A program made the position numbers and the translations under genes. This document shows positions 1,109 to 49,068 of a stretch of 57,449 nt of DNA, one piece after another. The notes under the pieces were generated by a model. It was not told where the DNA came from. It saw only the letters and a program-made list of their open reading frames with translations, and ran no database searches. The stretch comes from Candidatus Brocadiia bacterium (lineage in GTDB: Bacteria; Planctomycetota; Brocadiia; SM23-32), in contig JBKHIT010000030.1 in NCBI GenBank assembly GCA_046538485.1, positions 1 to 57,449 of the forward strand, given 5' to 3'. Positions within the stretch are counted from its first letter, which is position 1, and the number at the start of each line of letters is the position of its first letter.

Positions 1109-1137
1109 TTGAACAGATCTCGCCGATTCTGTACTAT
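1109..1137 (+). promoter_or_regulatory. Putative sigma70 promoter for the riboswitch leader
   Basis: TTGAAC-17 nt-TACTAT just upstream of the aptamer. Confidence 0.5.
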
Positions 1138-1147
1138 GAATGATGTA

Positions 1148-1305
1148 GCGAGCGGAGCCTGTCGTTGTTAGCAGGCCAGGGAAAACGGTGAGACTCCGTT
1201 GCGGACCCGCCGCTGTAACCGGTAGTGAGTGCCCGGTTCCGACCACTGTCCGATTGGATGGGAAGGTTGGGCGCCGCGTCGACCGGAAGCCAGAAGACCT
1301 GCTCG
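1148..1305 (+). ncRNA. Cobalamin (B12) riboswitch aptamer
   Basis: Conserved blocks AGGGAA..CGGTG.GA.TCCG, CCCGCCGCTGTAA, CCACTG...GGGAAGG and B12 box AGCCAGAAGACCTGC; lies upstream of a Btu-type ABC transporter; boundaries approximate. Confidence 0.93.
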
Positions 1306-1406
1306 TTGCACAGTGCTGTTTGTATCTTCGGGTTGCAGTGCGGCGTATGGCCGACTGCCAAGAGATGCGGCACGGAGCCCGATGGGTTCCTTTCTTCTGC
1401 AACTTG

Positions 1407-1436
1407 CCCGATGCAACAGCTGCATCGGGTTTTTTT
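1407..1436 (+). terminator. Intrinsic terminator of the riboswitch expression platform
   Basis: CCCGATGCA-ACAGC-TGCATCGGG followed by T7. Confidence 0.85.
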
Positions 1437-1495
1437 GTTGCCTGCCGCCTCCCGAAGGGATTTCCTGTATCTCGTTGGATCCCTGGAGGTTTGTT

Positions 1496-2290
1496 GTGTT
1501 CCGTTCTAAAGGCTTTACTCTGATAGAACTTCTGGTTGTCATCGCGATCATCGCGATCCTTGCAGCCATGTTAATGCCCGCCCTGGCTTCTGCCCGGGAA
1601 TCGGCTCGTCAAGCAAGTTGTCTCTCAAATCTCAAGCAGCTGGGGCTGGCGTCGCAGATGTACCTGAACGCCGGGGATGATCTGCTCCCACCGATGGACT
1701 ATCATCCAGACCCCCAAGACAACACCTACTACACTGTGGTTTTCGGCAGCTATAACACGGGCAATCAAGACGTTCACTACGATCGTGGGTCTCTGTCCGA
1801 TTTCATATCCGGTTCGAATGGGGACATCTGGCGCTGTCCAGAACTCAAATCCGGTGACGTGATATCCCGTGTTTTGCCGGACAACCGGGTAGCATCCGCG
1901 TATGGTTACAATTTCAACCTTGCCAACACGTGGACGGGACCGGGGTGGTACGATTACGAATATCACCGCATCCAGAGCATCGAAAAGACATCGAAAACAC
2001 TTTGCTTCATAGATTCTGCCATCAATTATCTGGTTAGCTGGGGAAGTCCAAACGATTACGGCAACCTAAGGGAAAACTGGACCATCGACTGGTACCCGGT
2101 GGCTGATAATGATTTCAACGATCCGGATCGCGATGGTTCGGGGCATTTTCGACACAATGGCCGACTCAATGCTTTGTTCTGGGACGGACATGTTGAGGGT
2201 CTTCAGCCGCCGAGGCCCGACTTTCTGGAAACCAACAACAACTGCGATTTTGTCTATCGCAGCACATCGCCCTACTACGACGGCAATTGA
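1496..2290 (+). CDS. Prepilin-type N-terminal cleavage/methylation protein, DUF1559-like, with C-terminal H-X9-DG motif
   Basis: GGAGG RBS then [62 protein letters not shown]. The ORF-track start (1229) lies inside the riboswitch. Confidence 0.9.
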
Positions 2291-2360
2291 ACGGTGGAAC
2301 AGAAAGACACGCCGGGGTATCGATTCCGAAACGGTTGATGAAGAGGCTCCGGGATAGATC

Positions 2361-3290
2361 ATGCAGAAGACAACGATCATGAGCGTGGCTCTTGCGCTGA
2401 TTGCAGGTGTTATTGGATCGGCGTCTCTCCAAAATATTTCTCCCCACCACGACGCTTCCCCGGAAGCTATCGATCGCGTCATCTGCATGTCGCCGGCGGT
2501 CACTGAAATCGTCTTTGCGCTCGGGCAGGGAGACCGTGTGGTGGGTATCAGCCAGTATGTCACCTATCCCCCCGAAGCGCTCGATATTCCTACATGCGGC
2601 GGTTTCTTTAATCCAAATTTTGAACAGGTGATGGCTCTCGAACCGGATCTCGTCTTGAGCCAGGGTTTGAGCGAAAGCGTCAACGAATTTTGCAGCGACC
2701 GCGGGATTAATTTTCACTCGGTTGAGTTGAGCGATCTGGAATCGGTTTTTGCGGCCATTCGCGAGATCGGGGATGAACTCGGAACGCCGGGGAAGGCTGC
2801 GGAGCTCTGCGATAGCTTGCGCGAGCAACTGCGCGACATCGCGCGGAAGACACGCAACCGTCCTCGGCCCGAAGTGCTGCTTATTATCGGTCGCGACTCG
2901 GGCACATTGCGCAATCTTTCCACGGCGGGGAGAGGAAGTTTTCTGCACGATATTCTCAAGATCGCCGGTGGGAAAAACATCTTTGCGGATATCGAAAAGA
3001 ACTACTCAAGCGTCGGGAAAGAAGCGGTCACCTCGCGATCTCCGGAAGTCATCATCGAACTCCACGGAGAAGGCATGTTTGACAATAAAAGAAAAGCCAG
3101 GATTCGGGAGACATGGAGCGAACTGTCTTCGATCCGGGCCGTCAAAACCGGCCGAATCTACGCGATCGGGGCGACGTACGCCCTTTTGCCGGGGCCTCGC
3201 CTGACGAAAATCGCCCGCAGATTTGCTGAATTTCTCCATCCCTCCATTATGGAAAGATCCACGCATGCAACCGGTGATGTCGGTCAATAA
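2361..3290 (+). CDS. btuF: Cobalamin/Fe-siderophore ABC substrate-binding protein (BtuF-like)
   Basis: Signal peptide; ICMSPAVTEIVFALG..RVVG, PNFEQVMALEPDLV, PGPRL; B12 specificity inferred from the riboswitch. Confidence 0.85.
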   Translation: MQKTTIMSVALALIAGVIGSASLQNISPHHDASPEAIDRVICMSPAVTEIVFALGQGDRVVGISQYVTYPPEALDIPTCGGFFNPNFEQVMALEPDLVLSQGLSESVNEFCSDRGINFHSVELSDLESVFAAIREIGDELGTPGKAAELCDSLREQLRDIARKTRNRPRPEVLLIIGRDSGTLRNLSTAGRGSFLHDILKIAGGKNIFADIEKNYSSVGKEAVTSRSPEVIIELHGEGMFDNKRKARIRETWSELSSIRAVKTGRIYAIGATYALLPGPRLTKIARRFAEFLHPSIMERSTHATGDVGQ

Positions 3291-4071
3291 CTGTTCTTTC
3301 TCCTACGGAGAGGGGGAATTCCGCCTGCAGGATGTTACGCTCGATGTGCATGCGGGGGAAATGCTGGGGATCGTCGGGCCTAACGGATCCGGCAAAAGCA
3401 CGCTCTTGCGGATAATGGCGGGTCTTCTTTCGACTTCTACCGGTGAGGTTACGATTGACGAACACCCGGTATCATCGATGAAACGAAGGGACTTTGCCCG
3501 GGAGGTAGCGTTTCTGCCACAAAGTCCTGAATCCTCCTTCGAATTCACCGTTCGTGAAGTGGTTGCCCTCGGACGTCACCCGTATCAGGGCGCTTTCGGA
3601 CTTCTGACAGCGGGAGATCAGGAGGTGATTTCCGAAGCGCTGGCCGAAACCGAATCCGAAAATCTGGGGAACAGATTTTTCTCCAGCCTGTCGGGCGGGG
3701 AAAAACAACGGGTTCTCGTGGCGAGTGTCCTGGCGCAGGAACCACGCGTTCTTCTTCTGGACGAGCCGAGCGCATCACTGGATATTCACCACAAATCGCA
3801 CGTTTTTGATCTGCTGTGGACGATATCGCGCAGAGAGATGGCCGTGGTGGTGGTCACACACGATCTGAACACCGCCAGCCGTTACTGCGATGTTCTGGCA
3901 CTTTTACATCAAGGGTCGCTGGAGCGCAAAGGAAAACCGGAAGAAGTGATGAATCAGGAATTGCTGGCCAGCGCTTATGATACACCGGTTAAGGTTGTGG
4001 GCCACCCGGTAACGGGCAAACCGATGGTTCTGGTTCTGGGGAAGAAAACTCGTGAACAAAATCAGACATGA
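3265..4071 (+). CDS. btuD: ABC ATPase (BtuD/FepC-like)
   Basis: GPNGSGKS, LSGGEKQR, LLLDEP, THDLN. Confidence 0.88.
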   Translation: MQPVMSVNNCSFSYGEGEFRLQDVTLDVHAGEMLGIVGPNGSGKSTLLRIMAGLLSTSTGEVTIDEHPVSSMKRRDFAREVAFLPQSPESSFEFTVREVVALGRHPYQGAFGLLTAGDQEVISEALAETESENLGNRFFSSLSGGEKQRVLVASVLAQEPRVLLLDEPSASLDIHHKSHVFDLLWTISRREMAVVVVTHDLNTASRYCDVLALLHQGSLERKGKPEEVMNQELLASAYDTPVKVVGHPVTGKPMVLVLGKKTREQNQT

Positions 4072-5086
4072 CCTGAGCGCCCGCAAACTGGGTCTGATAA
4101 TTGCCGTATTTCTTGTTATCAGCCTCCTGGCGGGCATCGTATGCGTTTTTTTTGGGTCGGCTGCCCTCGGTGTGGGGGAGGTGTTCTCGATACTTTTGCC
4201 CGGCGGTGGACCCGCCGAGGAGATTCCGTTCAACATTGTGATTTATCAGAGGGTGCCACGGGTTCTCCTGGCGCTTATGGCCGGTGGCGGGCTTGCGGTG
4301 GCCGGCGCGGTTTTTCAGGCGCTTCTGCGCAATCCACTCGCGACCCCCCATACGCTGGGGGTCTCGGCCGGTGGAGCGCTCGGTGCCGCGGTTGCAATAC
4401 TTTTCGATCTCACTTTTCCATCGTTCGGTGCGTTCGGAATGGTGCAGATCTGCGGCCTGGCGGGTTCGCTTGGCGTCATGATAATTATCTATCTGCTGGC
4501 CCGCCATAAAGAACGGTTTTCCACACTGAAACTCCTTCTCGCGGGCGTAACGATGGCCCTGGTGGCTTCGGCGATGATCATGTTCATCCGGTATATGGCC
4601 GACCCGCACAAACTGGTCCGGCTGGACCGCTGGCTCATGGGTGGTTTGCAGGTTAACAGTTACAGAACACTGGCGGCCGTGCTCCCGCTTTATCTGCCAG
4701 CCGTTGTTTTACTGTTCAGCCAGTTGAGCAATCTCAACCAGCTCGCTTTCGGCGAAGAGCTTGCGGCCGGACGCGGTCTCAACGTCCCGGCGGTTCAGAT
4801 CAGTGCGTTTGTGGGAGGATCGCTCCTGACTGCTTCCATTGTTTCGGTGGCCGGTCCGATCGGATTTGTGGGCCTGATCATACCCCACACAATTCGCTTG
4901 ATTCTCGGACCGGACCATCGGGTATTGCTGTTCGGATCTTTTTTCGCGGGGGCTGCGTTCCTGGCGATCGCCGACACGTTTGCCCGGACCGTGCTGGCGC
5001 CGACAGAGCTCCCGGTGGGGGTTTTGACGGCAATGCTGGGTGGGCCCTTTTTCCTGGTACTGCTGATTCGGAAAAGAGATTGGTAA
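4052..5086 (+). CDS. btuC: FecCD/BtuC-family permease
   Basis: RVPRVLLA, FQALLRNPLA.P..LGVS.G, GPIGFVGLIIPH, ELPVG. Confidence 0.88.
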   Translation: MNKIRHDLSARKLGLIIAVFLVISLLAGIVCVFFGSAALGVGEVFSILLPGGGPAEEIPFNIVIYQRVPRVLLALMAGGGLAVAGAVFQALLRNPLATPHTLGVSAGGALGAAVAILFDLTFPSFGAFGMVQICGLAGSLGVMIIIYLLARHKERFSTLKLLLAGVTMALVASAMIMFIRYMADPHKLVRLDRWLMGGLQVNSYRTLAAVLPLYLPAVVLLFSQLSNLNQLAFGEELAAGRGLNVPAVQISAFVGGSLLTASIVSVAGPIGFVGLIIPHTIRLILGPDHRVLLFGSFFAGAAFLAIADTFARTVLAPTELPVGVLTAMLGGPFFLVLLIRKRDW

Positions 5087-5144
5087 ATTGGTCCATTCCA
5101 CTTGAGTTTGTGGGTTCAGGCCAAATACTCTGAATGATTTTCAC

Positions 5145-5540
5145 ATGGAAAGGATCTCTATTTTGGCTTCCACAGTCACCGACGCTCGGCCCTTTTTTCC
5201 AGAGGATTGGATAATTTTGTTGGTTCTCGCTCTGCCGATTCTTTCGTTTGCCGGATGCGGAGGCGAATACTCCACCTCCGGGACCTCCGAAAAAGAAATT
5301 AAGCAGGTAACATCGGCGGTTGAAGCATATTTTGCCGAGGCAAAGGGGGCGTCAGCCTCGGAGAAAAAACGGATGCCTGCCTGGTTGCACGGAGCTGAAA
5401 AACCCAGAGTGAAAAACGTGGAGAAGATGAATGGCCGATACAAGGCTCTCGTTGAAATTGGCTTCGCCGGAAAGACGCTATCTCACTATTTTATTCTGGA
5501 AGACAAAGATGGCGAGCTGCAGGTTACCGGGGTGATCTGA
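5145..5540 (+). CDS. Hypothetical lipoprotein
   Basis: Hydrophobic stretch ending FAGC (lipobox-like); fills the gap before convergent aroA; start uncertain. Confidence 0.6.
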   Translation: MERISILASTVTDARPFFPEDWIILLVLALPILSFAGCGGEYSTSGTSEKEIKQVTSAVEAYFAEAKGASASEKKRMPAWLHGAEKPRVKNVEKMNGRYKALVEIGFAGKTLSHYFILEDKDGELQVTGVI

Positions 5541-5543
5541 CAC

Positions 5544-6821
5544 TCATTCAGTCTGAATACGGGCTCCGATTTCGCGCATAAGATCGGCAAACTCCGGGAA
5601 GGTTATTGACACAGCCTCTGCCGTTTTCACTGTTGTCTGACCGGACGCTGCGAGCCCCGCCACTGCGAGGGCCATGACGACCCGGTGGTCGGCATGCCCA
5701 TCGACAACGTTGCCTGCCAGGCTGTCGCCTTCAATAACCAGTCCGTCTTCCAGTTCTTCGATGGTGGCTCCCATTTTCCGCAATTCAGCCGTCATCACAG
5801 CGATGCGATCGGTTTCTTTCATGCGAGCCTGAGGAACGTTGATTAGCCGCGTTTCCCCGTCCGCCAGGGTTCCCGCCACCGCCAGCGCGGGAAGCGCATC
5901 GGGCGTTGCGTTCAGGTCAAACGTTACGCCCTGCAGTCGTTCCGGTCCCTGGATGCGAATGGTTCGTTCGCTGGCATCGACGCGGCACCCCATTTCTGCC
6001 ATCATCGAGACGACGGCTTTATCGCCCTGGCTATCGTTCATGTCGAGTCCTTCGAGGACCAGTTCCGAGCCCGTTATCGCGGCCGCGACGAGGAAAAAGG
6101 TCGCGCTGGAGAAATCGGCCGGGACGGTTTTATCGAAAGCCCGGTATTTCTGTTTTCCGGGGATCCGGAAATTCTGGAGGTCTTCGGACGCCTCCAGCTC
6201 AATTCCGACACTTTCCACCCACCGCCGTGTCATTTCGACGTATGGTTTTTCGTGGAGTAGCGGGGTATTGACACAAGATTCATTTTCTGCGGCCGGGCAG
6301 GCGATGAGAAGGGACGACATGTACTGGCTGGTGGGGCATTCAATTTCGACCTCTCCCCCATTTAATCCACCTCCGACGATGAGGGGGGCACATCCGTTTT
6401 TCTTTTTGGAGTAGGCAGTCGCGCCAAGGGATGAAAGTGCTTCCAGGAGCAGCGCTCCCGAGCGGCGCTGGATCTGATCGTCACCCGTCAACTCAGTGAG
6501 CCCGTTCGCCAGGGCGGCCGCGCCCATACCCAGGAAGAGCGTTGTCCCGGAGTTCCCGATATCGACGGTTTGCTCAGAGGCCACAGGCTGACGGTTTGTG
6601 CCTGTTATTTTCCAGACCGAAGGATCGGAGTCGTCGACCGCAGCGCCGAGGCTGCGGACGAGTTTCAAGCAGCTCCGTGTATCGGAGGAATCCAGGGGTT
6701 CACGGAGGTTGGATTGTCCGTGGGCGAGCAGACCGAGGATAAGGCCGCGGATTGTATGGGATTTGCTTCCCGGAATGCGGATTTGACCTCTGAGATTGCT
6801 CTTTTTAATTTTGAACTGCAC
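5544..6821 (-). CDS. aroA: 3-phosphoshikimate 1-carboxyvinyltransferase
   Basis: PGSKS, GNSGTT, SQYMSS, R.KETDRI, DHR motifs; GTG start after AAAGGAG. Confidence 0.95.
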   Translation of the reverse strand: MQFKIKKSNLRGQIRIPGSKSHTIRGLILGLLAHGQSNLREPLDSSDTRSCLKLVRSLGAAVDDSDPSVWKITGTNRQPVASEQTVDIGNSGTTLFLGMGAAALANGLTELTGDDQIQRRSGALLLEALSSLGATAYSKKKNGCAPLIVGGGLNGGEVEIECPTSQYMSSLLIACPAAENESCVNTPLLHEKPYVEMTRRWVESVGIELEASEDLQNFRIPGKQKYRAFDKTVPADFSSATFFLVAAAITGSELVLEGLDMNDSQGDKAVVSMMAEMGCRVDASERTIRIQGPERLQGVTFDLNATPDALPALAVAGTLADGETRLINVPQARMKETDRIAVMTAELRKMGATIEELEDGLVIEGDSLAGNVVDGHADHRVVMALAVAGLAASGQTTVKTAEAVSITFPEFADLMREIGARIQTE

Positions 6822-6999
6822 GTTTTCTCCTTTCGAAGTCAACGGCGAGTTTAATTTCGCAGATCGCCGAGTGCAACCTCATAGGGGTTTTCCCTCGCGA
6901 GGCGGAGGTTACGGGACATATTTTTATTATTATCGAGGGGCCAGTACCCCTTATGAAACCTATCCAAAAGCATCTGAGGTGGTTTAAGGGCATTTTTAA

Positions 7000-16599: not shown

Positions 16600-17520
16600 G
16601 GATCGTCGAAAGGACCAATCCCCCGACTCCCGTTGGTCGCCAGGCCTACGCGCTCACACGCCCCTTTCAGGGGCTCTTACCGTCGCGACAGGTAGCCCCC
16701 ACGTGGATCGTTCAGCACTCCGAAGGAGTGCCTGAGAGTGTAGCCCCGTGCGAAGGCGCCGTCAGCCGCCGGAGTTCGGGGTTCTGGGTGCGAAAAATAG
16801 AACGCGTCCCGAAGGGGGCGCTTGAGTGGAAACTGGCCCCCCCGTGGGGGATGTGATGGGCAGACGTGCCTGCCATTTTGAATCTTATTGGCATTGGTAT
16901 ACCCCCCTTCCAGGTAGTCCACCATGACTCGAAAGCGCAACGGCATAACGGAAAACGAAAAAAGGCAATCAAGGCGGTGGAACCTGCAAAACCGGGAGCG
17001 GACTGGACTTCAGCCGGAGGCTGGAGTTCAGCACGCGGTGTGATTTCCCTGGAGATTCCAGGCGCATTTTCATTTTCCGGCATTTGTCCGCCTCAAGTCC
17101 AGTTTCGCGCGCCGATGGCGGGCTCAGCTGAACTCGAGTCTCCGTTTCCCCTGCGAGCGGACTGGACTTCAGCACCGCTCCCGCGGGGCTGGTTCGCGGC
17201 AATCGGGGTCACCGGATGGGGCTGTTCCGACCTGAAAGGGCGTAACATAATATCCCGGGGTGCAAATGGCTGAAGGTCGTCGGAGCCCCGGGGTACAGTG
17301 TGCATTGAGAAAAAAGTGGGCTGAAAGTCCACCACAAAACTGTCGCCTCTTGCAGCACGAGACATTGCCCGAAAACCGGGGATGCTACCGGCACCGGCCC
17401 GTGTGGTGTCCCGCGCGCCAACGGCGGGCTGTGGATTGCGGTGTGTTAAAGCGGACCGACGGGACGTTTTACTCACCGCTGTGTCGTTCCGCTTTACCTC
17501 ATCTCTCCTTCTCTAAACGG
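16600..17520. repeat. Second composite array of REP-like palindromes
   Basis: GCCCCTTTCAGGGGC, GCACTCCGAAGGAGTGC, GCGTCCCGAAGGGGGCGC, GCGGACTGGACTTCAGC twice, and modules shared with 645-747 and 52706-52763. Confidence 0.75.
17389..17491 (+). repeat. Dispersed repeat of about 103 bp, copy 2
   Basis: Matches 645-747. Confidence 0.9.
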
Positions 17521-17659
17521 AGAACGACAACAAAAGATACTTGCAGCCGTTTTTCAACGGCAATTCGCCTTTACCTTCCGCGCAACAGTAGCGCTGAAGT
17601 CCTGTGCCTTTCCACGGTACACTGAAATATCTGGTAGAAGATGCAGGCTGGACCGTTAC

Positions 17660-17788
17660 TTATGTGACCGGTCTCTGCGTCTTCGCCGGATTGCGCGGGA
17701 ACCAGTTCGTGGTATGCAGGCAGATCTTCACCAGCATCAGCATGACGGGGACCTCGATCAGCACGCCCACAACCGTGGCGAGCGCGGC
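17660..17788 (-). pseudogene. acr3: 3' fragment of an ACR3-family arsenite efflux transporter
   Basis: Manual translation AALATVVGVLIEVPVMLMLVKICL...*, the ACR3 C-terminal motif; upstream sequence in this frame is unrelated. Confidence 0.8.
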
Positions 17789-17929
17789 GTCACGTTCGTG
17801 GTCAACAAGGAGGACAATCCGCTTGTCGCCGCCGAGAGGGCCCTTCGGCTTGCCGAGCGTATGGTCGAGCAGGAGCGTTTTGAGGCTGCGAAAGCCAATC
17901 TCCAGCTTGCCAAGAACCAGCTCGTGCTC
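17786..17929 (+). pseudogene. Internal fragment of a helical protein (possibly YfdX-like)
   Basis: GVTFVVNKEDNPLVAAERALRLAERMVEQERFEAAKANLQLAKNQL; GC-rich coding-like codons; family uncertain. Confidence 0.4.
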
Positions 17930-18097
17930 TTACGCACATAACTGAAGACTATCCTGCGGACCGCCGAGCAGGGGGACGTGCGCGTGCTGTTCCCGATGGT
18001 GCTGGGCGCCGCGGATTTGGAGAGCGCGGTAAATGAGGTGAGAATGATATCCGCGAACCAGGCGAGAGACGAGGCCCCGAAGATCGGTGCCATGGTC
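17930..18097 (+). pseudogene. ptsI: Internal fragment of PTS enzyme I
   Basis: LRT*LKTILRTAEQGDVRVLFPMV...KIGAMV matches EI QLRAILRA..G.VRIMFPM...IG.MVE; TAA sits at the conserved Gln. Confidence 0.7.
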
Positions 18098-18359
18098 GCC
18101 CCCCCGTGCGCTCTTCGAGCTACCGGAGATAAAGGTAGCTCTACCCTTTAGGAAAACACATGTCCGGGCGCCAAATTGTTCTAAAAGAACAAAAAGCGGA
18201 CGCTGAGAGGCCGGGGGGAGAAAAACGACACCTTCAAAGTCCGCTTTTTCTGTTGGGGCGGACGAATTCAAGTCGTTTCTGCTTTCAAGCAAACTTTATC
18301 GCGATTAAAATAAAGGGCTTTTGAATACTGCCTATTCCTTTCACACTTCGGCGAAAGTC

Positions 18360-29866: not shown

Positions 29867-30159
29867 GGGAAAAGACAGATATCCCGAACACAGAAGTTGA
29901 CTGAACCCCGTTCAGAATAGCTGCAAATAAACGAACCGGTATTATAGTCATGTGAGCATGGCTTTTCAAATATATGCCTGAGCTTCTGACCCTTATCCTA
30001 TTTCACAATCCCAACTTATGTTTCAATAATCTTACCCCGGAAGTTACAAAATATCACTTGACTTGAGAGATGAGGCAAATATCATTATGAATATGATTTT
30101 TGCGGGTTGAGAAAGAGTATTCGTACGGCAAGCCCCAGCAAAGAGGGCAGGAGTTTGAT

Positions 30160-33100
30160 ATGGGAAAACAGGCACGGCAGTTCCATGAAAGCTTTTTGGG
30201 GAGCCATATTATCGGGCGTTTTTTCTTTTTGATATTGGCACTCTCAGCCTGCTGGCTATGGGCCGGGCAAACTAAAGCTCAGAAAAAACCTCCGTTATTG
30301 GTGCCGATACGTTTTACACTTCCCACAGATTCCCGGGTCACGCTGGTCATTGAGGACGATCAGGGGCTCCGGGTGCGTAATCTCATCTCGGATATGCCTT
30401 TTAAAGCCGGGGAAAATACAGTTTGGTGGGATGGATTGATTGCAAAGCCTGTGAACATAGAGCGCAAAACCCGACACGCAAGTCACGATGTTAAATACGA
30501 ACTGGCTCCGCCGGGCAATTACAGTATTCGCGGGCTCTATCACGAGAAAATCGATCTTCTCTACCAATTGACGCCCTACCATCCCGGTTCCCCGCCCTGG
30601 TATACGGACCTTCGGCGAGAACCAGACGCTCCCTGGAGCTGGACTTCCCGAGGGGGTTGGCTTTCCGATATGGTCCCCCCCTCCGATGTGCTCTTTTTGC
30701 CTCACGGGAGTCCCTTTTCTCCGAAACGGCAGATGATGCTATCGGCAACGCATGCCGACCGAGGAGACGCGCTGGCCTGGGTCGATATCGACGGGCACAA
30801 ACTCGCGGGCCGTAACAGGATTCGGCCACCCGATGTGGGTGCTTTGAGGCTGGCCCTGGACGCAGGGCAGAGCCCCGAGCGGATCTACGCTGTGTATGTG
30901 GTTCAATCCGATCAAAAGCATCATTTAGGGATCTGTGAAATACAAAAGAACGGTCAGAAAGAGATCTTTGAAAAGACCTTTATTAACACAAAAACACTCG
31001 ATATCGGTGGCAGCGCGGCAAAAAACGGCGTTTTGGTGGTGAGCCTACCGTCCGATGACAAACTTCTGCTCATTGATGCCGCAGCGGGCAAACTGATGGG
31101 CCATTATCCGCTCAAAGAAGCTCGGGGGGTTTGTTACGATTCCCGAGGGCGCCTTCTTGCTATCTCGGCGAAATCGGTGGTGAGGTTTAAGGGAGGTGTT
31201 GGCTGGGCCGAAGGCACCTGTTTCGTACCCGACACCGAGACTTTTATCAGCGACTCACTGGTCCGGCCTTTTGATCTGGCTATCGGGCCGAATAAGCGAA
31301 TATACGTCACCGATGGAGGGACTCATCAGGTTAAGGTTTTCTCGCCCGATGGTAATAAAGTCCGTTCCATCGGCAAACCCGGGGGACCCCAGTTGGGCAG
31401 ATACGATCCAGAACGCATGCATAATCCGCGCGGGATTGCGATCACCAGAGGTGGCGCTCTGTGGGTTGCTGAATATAGCACATCACCGAGACGTATCAGT
31501 GTTTGGCGGACCGATGGTCGTTACGAGAAAGCTTTTTATGGCGGGCCACAATGGGATTCTCAAGGTAGTGTTGATCTTGTCGATAGGTCAATATTCCACT
31601 ATGCAGAAGGCGATCTCGGTATGCAATTCAGACTCGATTTGGCAGACGGCACAGTCGATTTAGAGACAATCTACCGACGCTCTGGATTTCTTGGGCGGGC
31701 TCCGCATGTCCCCATATACGTTCAGGGACGAAAATATATGGCAAATAGATATGATGTGCATGAGAGTGGCGTAGGTGAACCTCTCGGTATATGGCTATGG
31801 CGCGATGATCGCGTCATTCCTGTCGCGGCCGTCGGTCACACAAGCCAATCCAAAGATTTTGAGCCGTTTTCGCAGGTGTTGGGGAAGAACCCGAAAAGTC
31901 TTTTTATATGGTCTGATCTCAATGGGAACGGAAATGCCGAGTCGGAAGAGTTTTCTTTCAAGAAACTTGAACCCTGCAGGCTCTACGTAGGGTCAGATTT
32001 GACCATTTATACGTCTCATTCTTACCGTTTGCATCCCCGTCAATACACTGCAGGTGGTGTCCCGGTTTATGATGCTGATGAAGCACAGAGAGTAACCTCT
32101 GCTTGTGATGGTTTTGCGGGTTTTGGCCAGGGCGTAACGTTTCCCGGAGCTGATGGATCGGTCATCGTTACCGGGGCGCCAATAAGAGGTTATAAATCGG
32201 GGAAGCAACTCTGGTGGTACCCGAACCAATGGGTGGGTGCCAACCTGGCCAAAAAAGTCCCTCATACGTCTCGCCGAGGGCAGCTTAATGCTGCGGTAAG
32301 GCTATTGGGGCAGCCCTTTTACCCCCATTCTGTAAAAAAGATGGGCGTGTGGGGAATTGCCAGCTACAACGGACCATGTTACCTGTTCACCACAGACGGG
32401 TTGTTCATCGGCGAGTTGCTTGGAGATGGGCGGGAAGAAGATATTACATCACCCAAGTGCCGTCAGGGGGATTCGATTAAAAACATGAGCATGGGCGTTG
32501 ATACACCGGCTATTTCTCTTACCCATACAGCGGACGATCAGACTTATCTGGTCGCCGGTAAAAGCCACCATAGCATTGCCCGGATAACAAATCTCGCATC
32601 AATCAGACGGATCAAGCCTTTTGCAATTGAACTGGTCCCGAGTGATCTGGCGAAAGTTCTGGAGTATTTTAAGAACACCGGGGCGGAACAGGCGGAGCCC
32701 TATTTAATGAGCGGCTTCAAGGTGACGGAGAAGGTCCGGGAAAAACTTGCTCAGTACCGAATCCGTTACGAAAGCGAACGAATCAAACGGGAAGGGCGAC
32801 TTTCTTTGCAGGTATCGGCTCTGAATCGAGCCCCAATTCTGGACGGTCGGTTCGACGGATGGCGAAAAGCCGACTGGGTACACATTGACAAGCACACCCG
32901 CGCCGCGGTCGGTTTTTTAAAGCCTCGTCTTTACGTTGCCTTCCAGACCAAACATGATAAACTTCTCATGAACAATGCGGAGGATCCAAAGCAGATTTTT
33001 GCACGCGGCGGTGCTCTGGAACTGTTTGTCGGGAGCAACCCTGATGCTGACCCCGCAAGACAAAAACCGGTGGCCGGGGATAAACGACTTGTCGTGACCC

Positions 33101-33468
33101 GGATTGACGGAAAGGTTTGCGCGGTTCTCTATCAACCTGTGTCCCCCGACGAGAAAAAGCCTCACACGTTCAAATCCAAGGATTCCAAAATTCACTTTGA
33201 TCTCGTCAAAGAATGTACGGCGGACATAACTATCGGACAGCGTCCCCGCCATTATGAGATGTCCGTTCCTCTTAAATTGCTTGGTATCAAGCCGAAGAAC
33301 GGGCTCGTTCTGCGGGGAGATTTGGGTATTATTAAAGGCAGAGAGGGATCATGTGTTTGGCGGAAGTGCTGGAATAATCAGGCGACCTCGTGCGGGGCAG
33401 GGTTGAAATATGAGGTGAAGATGTACCCACAATTTTGGGGTGAGTGGCATTTTCCCAAAGGAGATTGA
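30160..33468 (+). CDS. Large secreted NHL-repeat/beta-propeller protein with FlgD-Ig-like N-terminus and CBM9-like C-terminus
   Basis: Signal peptide; TLVIED..G.RVRNL....AGE.TV.WDG; P.DLAIGP..RIYVTD...HQVKVFSPDG; WSDLNGNG; P.LDG..DGW. Confidence 0.75.
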   Translation: MGKQARQFHESFLGSHIIGRFFFLILALSACWLWAGQTKAQKKPPLLVPIRFTLPTDSRVTLVIEDDQGLRVRNLISDMPFKAGENTVWWDGLIAKPVNIERKTRHASHDVKYELAPPGNYSIRGLYHEKIDLLYQLTPYHPGSPPWYTDLRREPDAPWSWTSRGGWLSDMVPPSDVLFLPHGSPFSPKRQMMLSATHADRGDALAWVDIDGHKLAGRNRIRPPDVGALRLALDAGQSPERIYAVYVVQSDQKHHLGICEIQKNGQKEIFEKTFINTKTLDIGGSAAKNGVLVVSLPSDDKLLLIDAAAGKLMGHYPLKEARGVCYDSRGRLLAISAKSVVRFKGGVGWAEGTCFVPDTETFISDSLVRPFDLAIGPNKRIYVTDGGTHQVKVFSPDGNKVRSIGKPGGPQLGRYDPERMHNPRGIAITRGGALWVAEYSTSPRRISVWRTDGRYEKAFYGGPQWDSQGSVDLVDRSIFHYAEGDLGMQFRLDLADGTVDLETIYRRSGFLGRAPHVPIYVQGRKYMANRYDVHESGVGEPLGIWLWRDDRVIPVAAVGHTSQSKDFEPFSQVLGKNPKSLFIWSDLNGNGNAESEEFSFKKLEPCRLYVGSDLTIYTSHSYRLHPRQYTAGGVPVYDADEAQRVTSACDGFAGFGQGVTFPGADGSVIVTGAPIRGYKSGKQLWWYPNQWVGANLAKKVPHTSRRGQLNAAVRLLGQPFYPHSVKKMGVWGIASYNGPCYLFTTDGLFIGELLGDGREEDITSPKCRQGDSIKNMSMGVDTPAISLTHTADDQTYLVAGKSHHSIARITNLASIRRIKPFAIELVPSDLAKVLEYFKNTGAEQAEPYLMSGFKVTEKVREKLAQYRIRYESERIKREGRLSLQVSALNRAPILDGRFDGWRKADWVHIDKHTRAAVGFLKPRLYVAFQTKHDKLLMNNAEDPKQIFARGGALELFVGSNPDADPARQKPVAGDKRLVVTRIDGKVCAVLYQPVSPDEKKPHTFKSKDSKIHFDLVKECTADITIGQRPRHYEMSVPLKLLGIKPKNGLVLRGDLGIIKGREGSCVWRKCWNNQATSCGAGLKYEVKMYPQFWGEWHFPKGD

Positions 33469-48150: not shown

Positions 48151-49068
48151 ATGAAAGAGCTTCAAAAGTTGATACTTGTAATCGTTGTGTGTTTTACCGT
48201 GGGTTTAACAGTAACCGCTCAAACGGCCGAAAAGGAGAAGCCGACAATTGCAGTCTTCGATTTTGAACTCTCTCAAAAGGCAACAGAGAAGATAACTGTC
48301 GAGGGAAATAAACACAGTAGAAACTCTCAGATAAGGAAATCGTACGAAACGTCTCTCCTTTCGGGGAAATTGATCACGGCTTTGACCAAATCCGGCAAAG
48401 TATCTGTTCTCGAGCGCAAGAGGCTCCGGGCCCTTATGAAAGAGGTAGAGTTGAGCCGCAGCGATTTAAGCGATCCCAAACATTCCATCGAGCTGGGCAA
48501 GCTTCTGGGGGCGGATTATCTGTTATTCGGTTCCGTTTCAATGTTGGAAGGTTCAGTCAGTCACAAAAACCTCCCCTATGAAACAGGAAAACAACGGGTT
48601 ATGGAATACAGTGTCGGGGCCGACATGCGGATTGTCGATGCTGAGACGGGAAAAATCATAGCGGCCGAAAGCATGAAAGGCAAGCACGAAGAGAAAACTG
48701 TAAATCCTGATACTAAATACCGCCAGATTCCTGAAAAGTTTAAGCAAGAAACCTACCAGCAACTTGCCGAAAAGATGGTAGATGCAGTTTTGAACAGACT
48801 CTTTCCTGTGCGCGTGGCTGCCTACAAAAACAACACGGTCTATCTGAACCGTCCAGGCTTGAAGAAAGGCACCAAAATGAAAGTGATCGAACAAGGGGAG
48901 AAAATTGTTGATCCCACGTCAGGAAGAGGACTTGGTTTCACGGAAATCCCCATCGCGATCATCAAAATAACGGAGGGTTTGCCCACATTCTCCAAGGCGA
49001 CAATTGTTGAGTGGAAGACCGACAAACAACAAATTCCGAACGGGGCTCTCTGCCGGCCGCTGGATTGA
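48151..49068 (+). CDS. CsgG/HfaB-like secreted protein
   Basis: Signal peptide; IAVFDF, VLER..L..LMKE, GKLLGADY.LFG, RIVD.ETGKI; C-terminal DP.SG..LG domain. Confidence 0.75.
   Translation: MKELQKLILVIVVCFTVGLTVTAQTAEKEKPTIAVFDFELSQKATEKITVEGNKHSRNSQIRKSYETSLLSGKLITALTKSGKVSVLERKRLRALMKEVELSRSDLSDPKHSIELGKLLGADYLLFGSVSMLEGSVSHKNLPYETGKQRVMEYSVGADMRIVDAETGKIIAAESMKGKHEEKTVNPDTKYRQIPEKFKQETYQQLAEKMVDAVLNRLFPVRVAAYKNNTVYLNRPGLKKGTKMKVIEQGEKIVDPTSGRGLGFTEIPIAIIKITEGLPTFSKATIVEWKTDKQQIPNGALCRPLD

Follow-up and report, generated by a model that had tools for sequence, protein, structure and literature searches.

A cobalamin-riboswitch operon of a Brocadiia bacterium with a pilin-like DUF1559 gene in the position of btuB

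What is a pilin-like protein doing at the head of an operon for the uptake of vitamin B12? The question is raised by a contig of Candidatus Brocadiia bacterium (JBKHIT010000030.1 of assembly GCA_046538485.1), all 57,449 nucleotides (nt) of which we have analyzed and refer to as the window. Close to its beginning a cobalamin riboswitch is followed by a gene for a prepilin-type protein of the DUF1559 family, then by genes for a BtuF-, BtuD- and BtuC-like importer and for a small membrane-anchored protein. Few paralogous families are as large as DUF1559 in Planctomycetota and other bacteria of the Planctomycetota-Verrucomicrobiota-Chlamydiota (PVC) group, and we know of no DUF1559 protein that has a known function. 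One report (PMC10632474) gives 68 members for Planctopirus limnophila, two of them essential. We have examined the position that the gene occupies in related genomes, the proteins encoded at the locus, and the routes by which they might serve corrinoid uptake.

Exchange of envelope cassettes upstream of btuFDC

The window genome (G000; 143 contigs, 5.19 Mb, 88.3% complete) was placed in a set of 41 related genomes, itself included, all of which are metagenome bins or drafts, the relatives being 64–100% complete. The cobalamin riboswitch family RF00174 was found in 39 of the 41. We examined 56 riboswitch matches, comprising all those outside family f5 and six f5 loci and taking the most downstream of tandem sets, and classified the first downstream gene, which in G008, G009, G019 and G022 was set from the coordinates of profile matches. 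A prepilin/DUF1559 gene is the first after the riboswitch in 20 of the 41 genomes. These belong to family f1 (G000, G001, G002, G006, G009, G010, G011, G012, G013, G015, G019, G020, G021 and G024), to f4 (G027, G030, G033 and G035), to f6 (G032) and to f7 (G037). For another f1 genome, G014, the leader is not visible because the contig ends about 100 nt before a full-length orthologue and btuFDC. Thirteen f1 relatives have an orthologue that matches the window protein over its full length (E 1e-25 to 1e-85).

Ten f1 genomes are without this clade. In nine of them (G003, G004, G005, G008, G016, G017, G018, G022 and G023) the riboswitch is followed by a gene for a TonB-dependent receptor, and in G007 a receptor gene lies at the start of a contig, with no riboswitch found. 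The receptor-type genomes give just N-terminal matches to the window protein (E ~1e-16 to 1e-19), and G018 gives none. The three receptor-type operons that we scanned (G003, G016 and G008) have the order riboswitch, receptor, ExbB, ExbD, TonB, BtuF, BtuD, BtuC. In the pilin-type operons of G009, G010, G011 and G014 the order is DUF1559 protein, small protein, BtuF, BtuD, BtuC, with the riboswitch ahead (unseen in G014). We retrieved nine receptor-type loci, of which six carry btuFDC; in the others only a distant BtuF-like gene (G023), a short contig (G022) or no btuFDC (G005) was seen. The importer proteins of the two kinds of operon are about equally close to those of the window: identities for the six receptor-type and the pilin-type operons are, respectively, 58–60% and 56–62% for BtuC, 55–60% and 53–64% for BtuD, and 40–49% and 43–49% for BtuF. 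Within one family, a four-gene block is traded for a two-gene block at a single position before orthologous btuFDC.

In a tree of concatenated BtuFDC sequences from 19 operons the two types are interleaved. The best tree has four changes between them, and its well-supported branches force one. At least one swap has taken place, and several are possible on this phylogeny.

The importer genes accompany the pilin gene widely among the relatives, where btuF-btuD-btuC lies downstream, sometimes with cobU-, cobT-, cobS- or cobC-like genes between; these cob names were read from N-terminal sequences together with DBI_PRT and His_Phos_1 matches. Seven of 12 extended pilin-type loci have all three btu genes, while L041 has btuF and btuD up to the end of its contig and L014 the start of btuF. 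Six further f1 pilin-type loci were inspected: all three genes are present in G009 and G014, G006 has btuF, btuD and the start of btuC, G024 has btuF only, and G001 and G020 have no btu gene in the stretch examined. The riboswitch-DUF1559-btuFDC synteny, which the initial annotation had suggested surveying, is thus conserved among these related genomes.

Taken over whole genomes, the DUF1559 clade and TonB-dependent receptors or TonB are nearly mutually exclusive. The receptor barrel PF00593 is found in 22 of the 41 genomes. It occurs in three of the 20 riboswitch-then-prepilin genomes (G011, G030 and G035, the two matches in G011 both lying at contig ends), in 19 of the 20 others (all but G025), and not in G014, which was set apart on account of its leader. 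TonB_C is found in 21 of the 41 genomes. The f1 genomes with it are the ten receptor genomes and G011; the remaining 14 of the 25 gave no match.

There is a second position at which a member of the clade appears to stand where a relative has a receptor. The sole G000 paralogue that falls inside the clade, on contig C51, is followed by genes for DUF2162, a MotA/ExbB-family protein, DUF2149 and a CobN-family protein of 1334 residues (L042:5244-11597); no riboswitch was found upstream of it. DUF2162 is present in 2 of the 41 genomes only, G000 and G023, so that the idea of a cassette widespread among the relatives was rejected. The G023 copy of the cassette is preceded by two B12 riboswitches and a gene for a TonB-dependent receptor, and its CobN protein is 39% identical over 1348 aligned columns. 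The cassette, probably related to tetrapyrroles, resembles hmuYRSTUV of Bacteroidota, for which PMC12583661 describes HmuR as a TonB-dependent transporter, HmuU and HmuV as components thought to energize it, and HmuS as a CobN-like de-chelatase. DUF2162, the ExbB-like protein and DUF2149 may map onto HmuT, HmuU and HmuV, the CobN-family protein is HmuS-like, and in G023 the receptor comes ahead of them. The difference is that in G000 a DUF1559 protein stands in place of HmuY/HmuR. The position of the G023 cassette after B12 riboswitches suggests a corrinoid, and not haem, as its possible substrate.

A background was drawn from 27 of the 78 loci returned by a pattern-based search. That search relied on the generic N-terminal pattern FTL[IV]E[LM]LVV and recovered mostly unrelated DUF1559 paralogues across PVC phyla, and it is therefore no survey of the clade. 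A riboswitch was found in none of the 12 background loci matched by the N-terminal helix alone and in 2 of the 15 with longer matches. One of the two, from a bin labeled Brocadiia, has the riboswitch directly before a DUF1559 gene. In the other, from a Chthoniobacteraceae bin, the riboswitch is followed by genes for a PEP-CTERM protein (351 residues) and an unknown protein (267 residues) and then by the prepilin gene (L151:3828-6762), after which come ZnuA and two ABC-3 permeases.

Some riboswitches of the relatives have other neighbors. The only riboswitch found in G025 (94% complete) precedes a PQQ_2/BamB-like beta-propeller gene (L023:1859-3172); this genome gave no match to a TonB-dependent receptor or TonB_C, and the beta-propeller is perhaps a further capture protein that works without a receptor. 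G032 has B12 riboswitches ahead of an OprB-family porin gene and, at a different place, ahead of a DUF1559 gene that CbiX follows (L064:1677-3086, L065:301-1755), and in G029 (L004) a riboswitch lies directly before exbB-exbD. Riboswitches recurrently precede a gene for a radical SAM/SPASM protein of about 470–550 residues (L051, L055, L060, L061, L062 and L066, in G009, G005, G029, G035, G030 and G032), and in G016 such a gene follows btuC at the end of the btu operon (L070:7301-8791).

The operon, its leader and the window genome

The features of the operon and some others in the window are collected in Table 1. The initial annotation had placed a cobalamin riboswitch in front of the prepilin gene, and the search with RF00174 confirms it, with a full-length match far above the gathering score of 31.5 bits. 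It is the sole RF00174 match in the genome. The terminator-like hairpin (1406-1430) begins 86 nt past the aptamer, upstream of the Shine-Dalgarno sequence; it has a stem of 10 pairs (six of them GC) and a loop of 5 nt, and is followed by TTTTTTTG. The pilin-like gene starts at a GTG, at neither 1148 nor 1229, and this codon is 6 nt after GGAGG (1485-1489).

Table 1. Features of the B12 operon and of other parts of the window
Feature	Position	Strand	Evidence and remarks
Cobalamin riboswitch aptamer	1133-1320	+	RF00174, 98.1 bits, model positions 1-189 of 189, E 2.6e-23
Intrinsic terminator-like hairpin and T run	1406-1437	+	interpreted as the expression platform of the riboswitch
DUF1559 prepilin-type (pilin-like) protein, 264 residues	1496-2290	+	PF07963, PF07596, TIGR02532; B12-riboswitch-linked clade
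BtuF-like periplasmic corrinoid-binding protein, 309 residues	2361-3290	+	PF01497 (Peripla_BP_2), 105.3 bits
BtuD-like ABC ATPase, 268 residues	3265-4071	+	PF00005, 117.7 bits
BtuC-like FecCD permease, 344 residues	4052-5086	+	PF01032, 278.9 bits
Small membrane-anchored NTF2-like protein, 131 residues	5145-5540	+	family hidden Markov model, model fold; lipobox-like LSFAGC
aroA	5544-6842	convergent to operon	marks the end of the operon
Four adjacent small open reading frames (135, 121, 113 and 120 residues)	16866-18292		no Pfam match at E <= 1e-6; flanked by a tRNA gene and an aldo/keto reductase gene
1122-residue protein	30100-33465		NHL repeats the only recognized feature; unrelated to the B12 operon
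CsgG/LpoB-like lipoprotein	48151-49065		unrelated to the B12 operon

The genes that follow are tightly arranged. The btuF- and btuD-like genes overlap by 26 nt and the btuD- and btuC-like genes by 20 nt, while gaps of 70 nt and 58 nt separate the pilin gene from btuF and btuC from the small-protein gene; no convincing terminator was found between the first and second genes (2290-2361). An alternative TTG start for the BtuD-like gene is present at 3223, and orthologues align from residue 1 of the form that begins at ATG-3265. Thus the coupled BtuF/D/C-like genes and the lipoprotein described in the initial annotation are all present, with small corrections only. No TonB-dependent receptor, Plug (PF07715) or barrel (PF00593) was found among the operon proteins or the 51 open reading frames of the window that were scanned, as that annotation had also stated. 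The remainder of the window consists of housekeeping genes.

A Peripla_BP_2 protein, a FecCD permease and an ATP-binding cassette (ABC) ATPase encoded together make up the gene set of a BtuFCD-type (type II) importer. None of the three reaches the level of an NCBIfam equivalog: the binding protein scores 99.4 bits with BtuF NF002894 (cut-off 234), the permease 217 bits with its best match, BtuC NF003001 (cut-off 334), and the ATPase 160.5 bits with BtuD NF002981 (cut-off 281). The best NCBIfam match of the ATPase is the 'corrinoid ABC transporter ATPase' NF007082, at 265 bits and under the cut-off of 537. Among solved structures the best relatives of the binding protein are the E. coli BtuF entries (E 5.5e-26), which rank over haem and siderophore binders. 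We assign corrinoid specificity to the importer because of the riboswitch and this ranking of E. coli BtuF.

The binding-protein and permease genes are the only btuF and btuC homologues in G000. Profile searches of the 88.3%-complete genome found no PF00593, Plug or TonB_C match, nor did they find CbiC, which serves as a marker for the de novo synthesis of corrin. A B12-regulated btuB elsewhere in the genome was looked for and none was found. CobS is present, and 13 matches to B12-binding domains exceed the cut-off. There are also three matches to secretin, 10 to T2SSE ATPases over the cut-off and two to prepilin peptidase (Peptidase_A24). With 13 B12-binding domains and CobS, and no CbiC found, G000 looks like a heavy corrinoid user that needs import or salvage, with pilus or secretion machinery and no TonB system found.

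The pilin-like protein and its small predicted partner

The pilin-like protein scores above the cut-offs for PF07963 (N_methyl; 36.1 bits, cut-off 21.2), TIGR02532 (32.8 bits, cut-off 16.3) and PF07596 (DUF1559; 40.8 bits, cut-off 23.3), although the last match covers only residues 32–80, on profile positions 2–49 of 268. Its class III signal comprises a short basic leader, G-1, F+1, E+5, a hydrophobic alpha-1N segment and P+22. E+5 and P+22 are hallmarks of polymerizing filament subunits, and both are invariant across 113 aligned homologues, as is the cysteine pair C42/C114. The protein had been named as an H-X9-DG/DUF1559 protein. The DUF1559 part of that identity is borne out, and the motif H220-x9-D230-G231 is readable, with H220, D230 and G231 conserved in the alignments; TIGR04294 itself was not matched at E <= 0.01. 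A crude H-x9-DG regular expression matched 16 of the 134 prepilin-motif open reading frames of G000 and was not used further.

The AlphaFold2 model of the protein (predicted local distance difference test, pLDDT, 88.7; predicted template modeling score 0.85) has a helix of 50 residues (9–59) and a beta-rich head. When it was compared with 48,161 chains (VIA), the top 25 rows were all type IV pilins or pseudopilins, led by PilA4 (6xxd_A, Z 5.5, 123 residues aligned with a root-mean-square deviation (rmsd) of 3.3) and including ComP (5hz7, Z 4.3), EpsG (Z 4.3) and PulG (Z 3.4). The model thus suggests a pilin fold for the DUF1559 protein, pilin-like throughout, which had not been seen in the initial annotation. 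The Pfam short name SBP_bac_10 suggests a head like that of periplasmic binding proteins; the 50 fold rows listed do not favor this, as they include no such chain, although a family missing from that list may still be related.

G000 holds 104 DUF1559 candidates of 200–370 residues. We constructed a tree of 116 rows from the window protein, 12 riboswitch-linked proteins of relatives and 103 G000 paralogues in this size range. Twelve of the 13 riboswitch-linked proteins group together with one G000 paralogue (SH-like approximate likelihood ratio test, 98), and the protein of G015 falls outside that clade. One homologue bears the database name 'DUF1559 family PulG-like putative transporter', so annotators have guessed at a transport role. 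Many homologues of ~320–340 residues (P0010, P0019, P0025 and others) carry PF14375 Cys_rich_CWC at the C terminus, after the prepilin domain. The source names of close homologues include Sedimentisphaerales, a bin labeled 'Brocadiaceae', Victivallales and Lentisphaeria, and they indicate PVC bacteria, probably Planctomycetota.

The small protein has no Pfam or NCBIfam family. A hidden Markov model (HMM) built for it finds a match directly after the pilin gene in G001, G002, G006, G009, G010, G011, G014, G020 and G021, and a weak one, cut by the contig end, in G019; unlike that in these relatives, the window copy is the last gene of its operon. No match was found at the nine receptor-type loci or at the f4, f6 and f7 loci. 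Searched genome-wide, the small protein is present in 13 of the 41 genomes, all of them f1 carriers of the clade (13 of 14, G024 alone having no match), and in none of the 27 others. A small partner for each DUF1559 gene was considered and rejected: the HMM finds one copy in G000 (E <= 10), and the neighbors of the other paralogues look unrelated or spurious. The anchor varies among the orthologues, being a lipobox in some and a plain N-terminal transmembrane helix in several.

The model of the small protein is good from residue 45 (pLDDT ~80–94 for residues 45–131), with a helix at 49–68 and four long strands. It is an NTF2/cystatin-like cone in which N-terminal helices pack on a curved antiparallel sheet. 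The closest folds are those of a designed NTF2 protein (6w3w_A, Z 9.4, 82 residues aligned, rmsd 2.6), the VirB8-like OrfG (8s7l_A, Z 8.3), 3ub1_A (Z 8.1) and TraM (4ec6_A, Z 7.5). This likeness of predicted folds does not show any shared function.

A complex predicted between the pilin head (residues 30–264) and the partner (38–131) gave a median ipSAE of 0.73, compared with 0.05 for the best control. Of 157 solved complexes, 116 come up to this mark, as do 2 of 215 mismatched pairs; since our own alignments were used, these counts are rough. At least 89% of contacts agree between runs, with a partner pLDDT of at least 84, and the interface takes in loops 179–184 and 206–207, the parts of the monomer model that have low confidence. 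The prediction suggests that the small protein binds the pilin head. What the initial annotation had recorded as a lipoprotein would thus be a specific partner of the pilin-like protein, a relationship that it had not seen.

Possible routes for the vitamin

How might these proteins serve the uptake of corrinoids? The reading that we prefer, at a probability of roughly 55%, is that this is a B12-repressed uptake operon in which a two-gene envelope module does the job of BtuB-ExbB-ExbD-TonB, probably independently of TonB by way of type IV filament machinery. When corrinoid is scarce, the riboswitch would let transcription through the terminator and the whole operon would be made, its genes presumably co-transcribed. 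The pilin-like protein would be processed by prepilin peptidase and, together with its partner, would use shared machinery of the type IV filament or type II secretion kind, the ATPases and secretins being encoded elsewhere. Assembled into a filament, the module would bind corrinoid, capture it at or across the outer membrane and bring it to the periplasm, where it could be handed to BtuF for import by BtuCD. What makes a filament-based route attractive is that the energizing proteins ExbB-ExbD-TonB are part of the displaced block and that pilins depend on machinery encoded at other loci. Given the exchange at one position, the near exclusion, the need for corrinoid and the second swap, the simplest account is that pilin and partner supply the envelope step of BtuB-TonB.

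The initial annotation had proposed that the pilin-like protein, on a type IV filament or pseudopilus, delivers corrinoid to BtuF independently of BtuB. The cassette swap, the near exclusion, the failure to find btuB or tonB in G000 and the distinct clade argue strongly for a BtuB-independent route that feeds BtuF; the specific pseudopilus mechanism remains conjectural.

Several observations weigh against the filament-based reading. There are no pilus assembly genes within the operon. The pilin fold matches are consistent but weak, the best Z being only 5.5, the head is twice the usual size, and a Foldseek search of the PDB returned nothing at E <= 0.001, just weak matches to the N-terminal pilin helix. 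A partner anchored by a transmembrane helix fits a periplasmic complex at the inner membrane at least as well as a surface fiber, and the riboswitch-linked DUF1559 proteins of the f4 and f7 genomes have no small partner. Exclusion is not strict, as G011, G030 and G035 carry both riboswitch-linked DUF1559 genes and receptor matches. Because all of the genomes are drafts, 'not found' is not 'absent'. Finally, the BtuFDC tree is poorly resolved, so that related genomes may all have inherited one swap, and the two-by-two counts are not independent.

The anchoring of the partner is the reason for keeping as the main rival a trap or dock in the periplasm, resembling a bindosome. The pilin would remain unassembled in the inner membrane and, with its anchored partner, would concentrate corrinoid or position BtuF by BtuCD, the vitamin crossing the outer membrane through a large porin or a leaky envelope. 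We regard this as possible but doubtful. It fits the transmembrane helix of several orthologues and the lipobox of others, the resemblance of the partner to VirB8-like bitopic periplasmic proteins (8s7l and 3ub1), an operon without assembly genes, and the B12 riboswitch that G032 has before an OprB-family porin. It also has a precedent in sugar-binding proteins of Sulfolobus, which bear class III signal peptides and serve ABC transporters (PMC3047682). The trap leaves unexplained, however, why the receptor and ExbB-ExbD-TonB should be replaced together while the periplasmic binder BtuF is kept. The invariant E+5 and P+22 also speak against it, as does the pilin-like head, whose 50 listed fold rows include no chain of a periplasmic binding protein. 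What the Sulfolobus bindosome shares with the window locus is a protein with a pilin-type signal whose gene accompanies those of an ABC importer, which it is presumed to supply. The bindosome subunits differ in being true substrate-binding proteins of the ABC system in an archaeon with no outer membrane; the window locus has a separate BtuF, a pilin-like head and a diderm host.

We think it very unlikely that the protein is a B12-repressed pilin with a role outside transport, such as adhesion to B12-producing neighbors or a change of surface under B12 starvation, merely co-regulated with the importer. Riboswitches of the relatives do also precede radical SAM/SPASM, CbiM, CobT and CobD/Q genes, and adhesion is a frequent role of minor and modular pilins (PMC8179133). 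Against this, the gene fills the btuB-exbBD-tonB slot before orthologous btuFDC and goes together with the lack of a receptor and of TonB across whole genomes, a sister paralogue stands where the receptor would be in the second tetrapyrrole cassette, and a B12-dependent organism in which no CbiC was found needs some route over the outer membrane.

The least probable reading is that btuB-tonB was missed in binning or assembly, the DUF1559 pair being an extra capture factor like BtuG. An assembly of 143 contigs and 88.3% completeness, the three genomes having both kinds of gene and the extra B12-capture lipoproteins that Bacteroides use beside BtuB (PMC6143338) would allow it. Against it, 16 riboswitch-prepilin genomes besides G000 (66–96% complete) have no PF00593 match, all 10 f1 genomes without the clade have one, TonB_C splits likewise, and those receptor-type genomes that were examined have the receptor and TonB inside the B12 operon, where the pilin module sits.

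The preferred reading, capture by the pilin module, can be set beside systems that are already known. In E. coli-type uptake (BtuB, TonB-ExbB-ExbD, BtuF and BtuCD), as here, a riboswitch leads the first envelope gene and a BtuF/D/C-type importer follows, and sister f1 genomes have exactly this system in one operon. Neither the window operon nor G000 shows a Plug, barrel or TonB, however, the slot being filled by the pilin-like and NTF2-like proteins, and the energy for the module would come from a shared type IV filament machine instead of proton-motive TonB. DNA uptake by pilus retraction is the nearest mechanistic analogue. The ligand-binding minor and modular pilins, such as DNA-binding ComP and PilB of S. 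sanguinis, resemble the window protein in the class III signal, in a pilin fold, suggested for the window protein by its model, and in an enlarged head presumed to be ligand-specific (PMC8179133). They differ from the window protein in that its presumed ligand is a vitamin and not DNA or a host protein, and in that its gene lies in a metabolite-regulated transporter operon far from any pilus gene cluster. BtuG of Bacteroides has been proposed to act at an early capture step in B12 transport (PMC6143338). Both it and the window module are accessory, riboswitch-linked envelope proteins of corrinoid loci whose function was previously unknown; BtuG works with BtuB, whereas the window module stands instead of BtuB-TonB, and we saw no relation in sequence or fold.

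The literature searched, which excluded subscription journals and consisted mostly of titles and the opening lines of abstracts, contained no description of a B12 or uptake role for DUF1559. The present analysis adds a swap at the level of whole cassettes with btuB-exbBD-tonB in one family, a specific NTF2-like partner, and a second case resembling hmu.

The locus ties one DUF1559 clade to a defined class of ligand, a regulator and a downstream transporter, and the sister genomes with btuB-exbBD-tonB in the same slot are a natural control that makes the question directly testable. If the reading is true, it would show how bacteria without TonB systems import a vitamin of 1.3 kDa, would extend the biology of type IV filaments from DNA uptake to the uptake of small nutrients, and would change the modeling of B12 exchange in the mats, sediments and guts that these bacteria inhabit. 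More tentatively, and at well short of an even chance, DUF1559 pilins may be substrate-specific receptors, here acting with an NTF2-like partner, that capture corrinoids and perhaps other tetrapyrroles; a type IV filament, extending and retracting through a secretin, would then take the ligand over the outer membrane independently of TonB and bring the vitamin to BtuF. In that case the DUF1559 paralogues of PVC bacteria, 100 or more in each genome, would make up a repertoire of substrate-specific uptake receptors, functionally comparable to the repertoires of TonB-dependent receptors in Bacteroidota and Proteobacteria.

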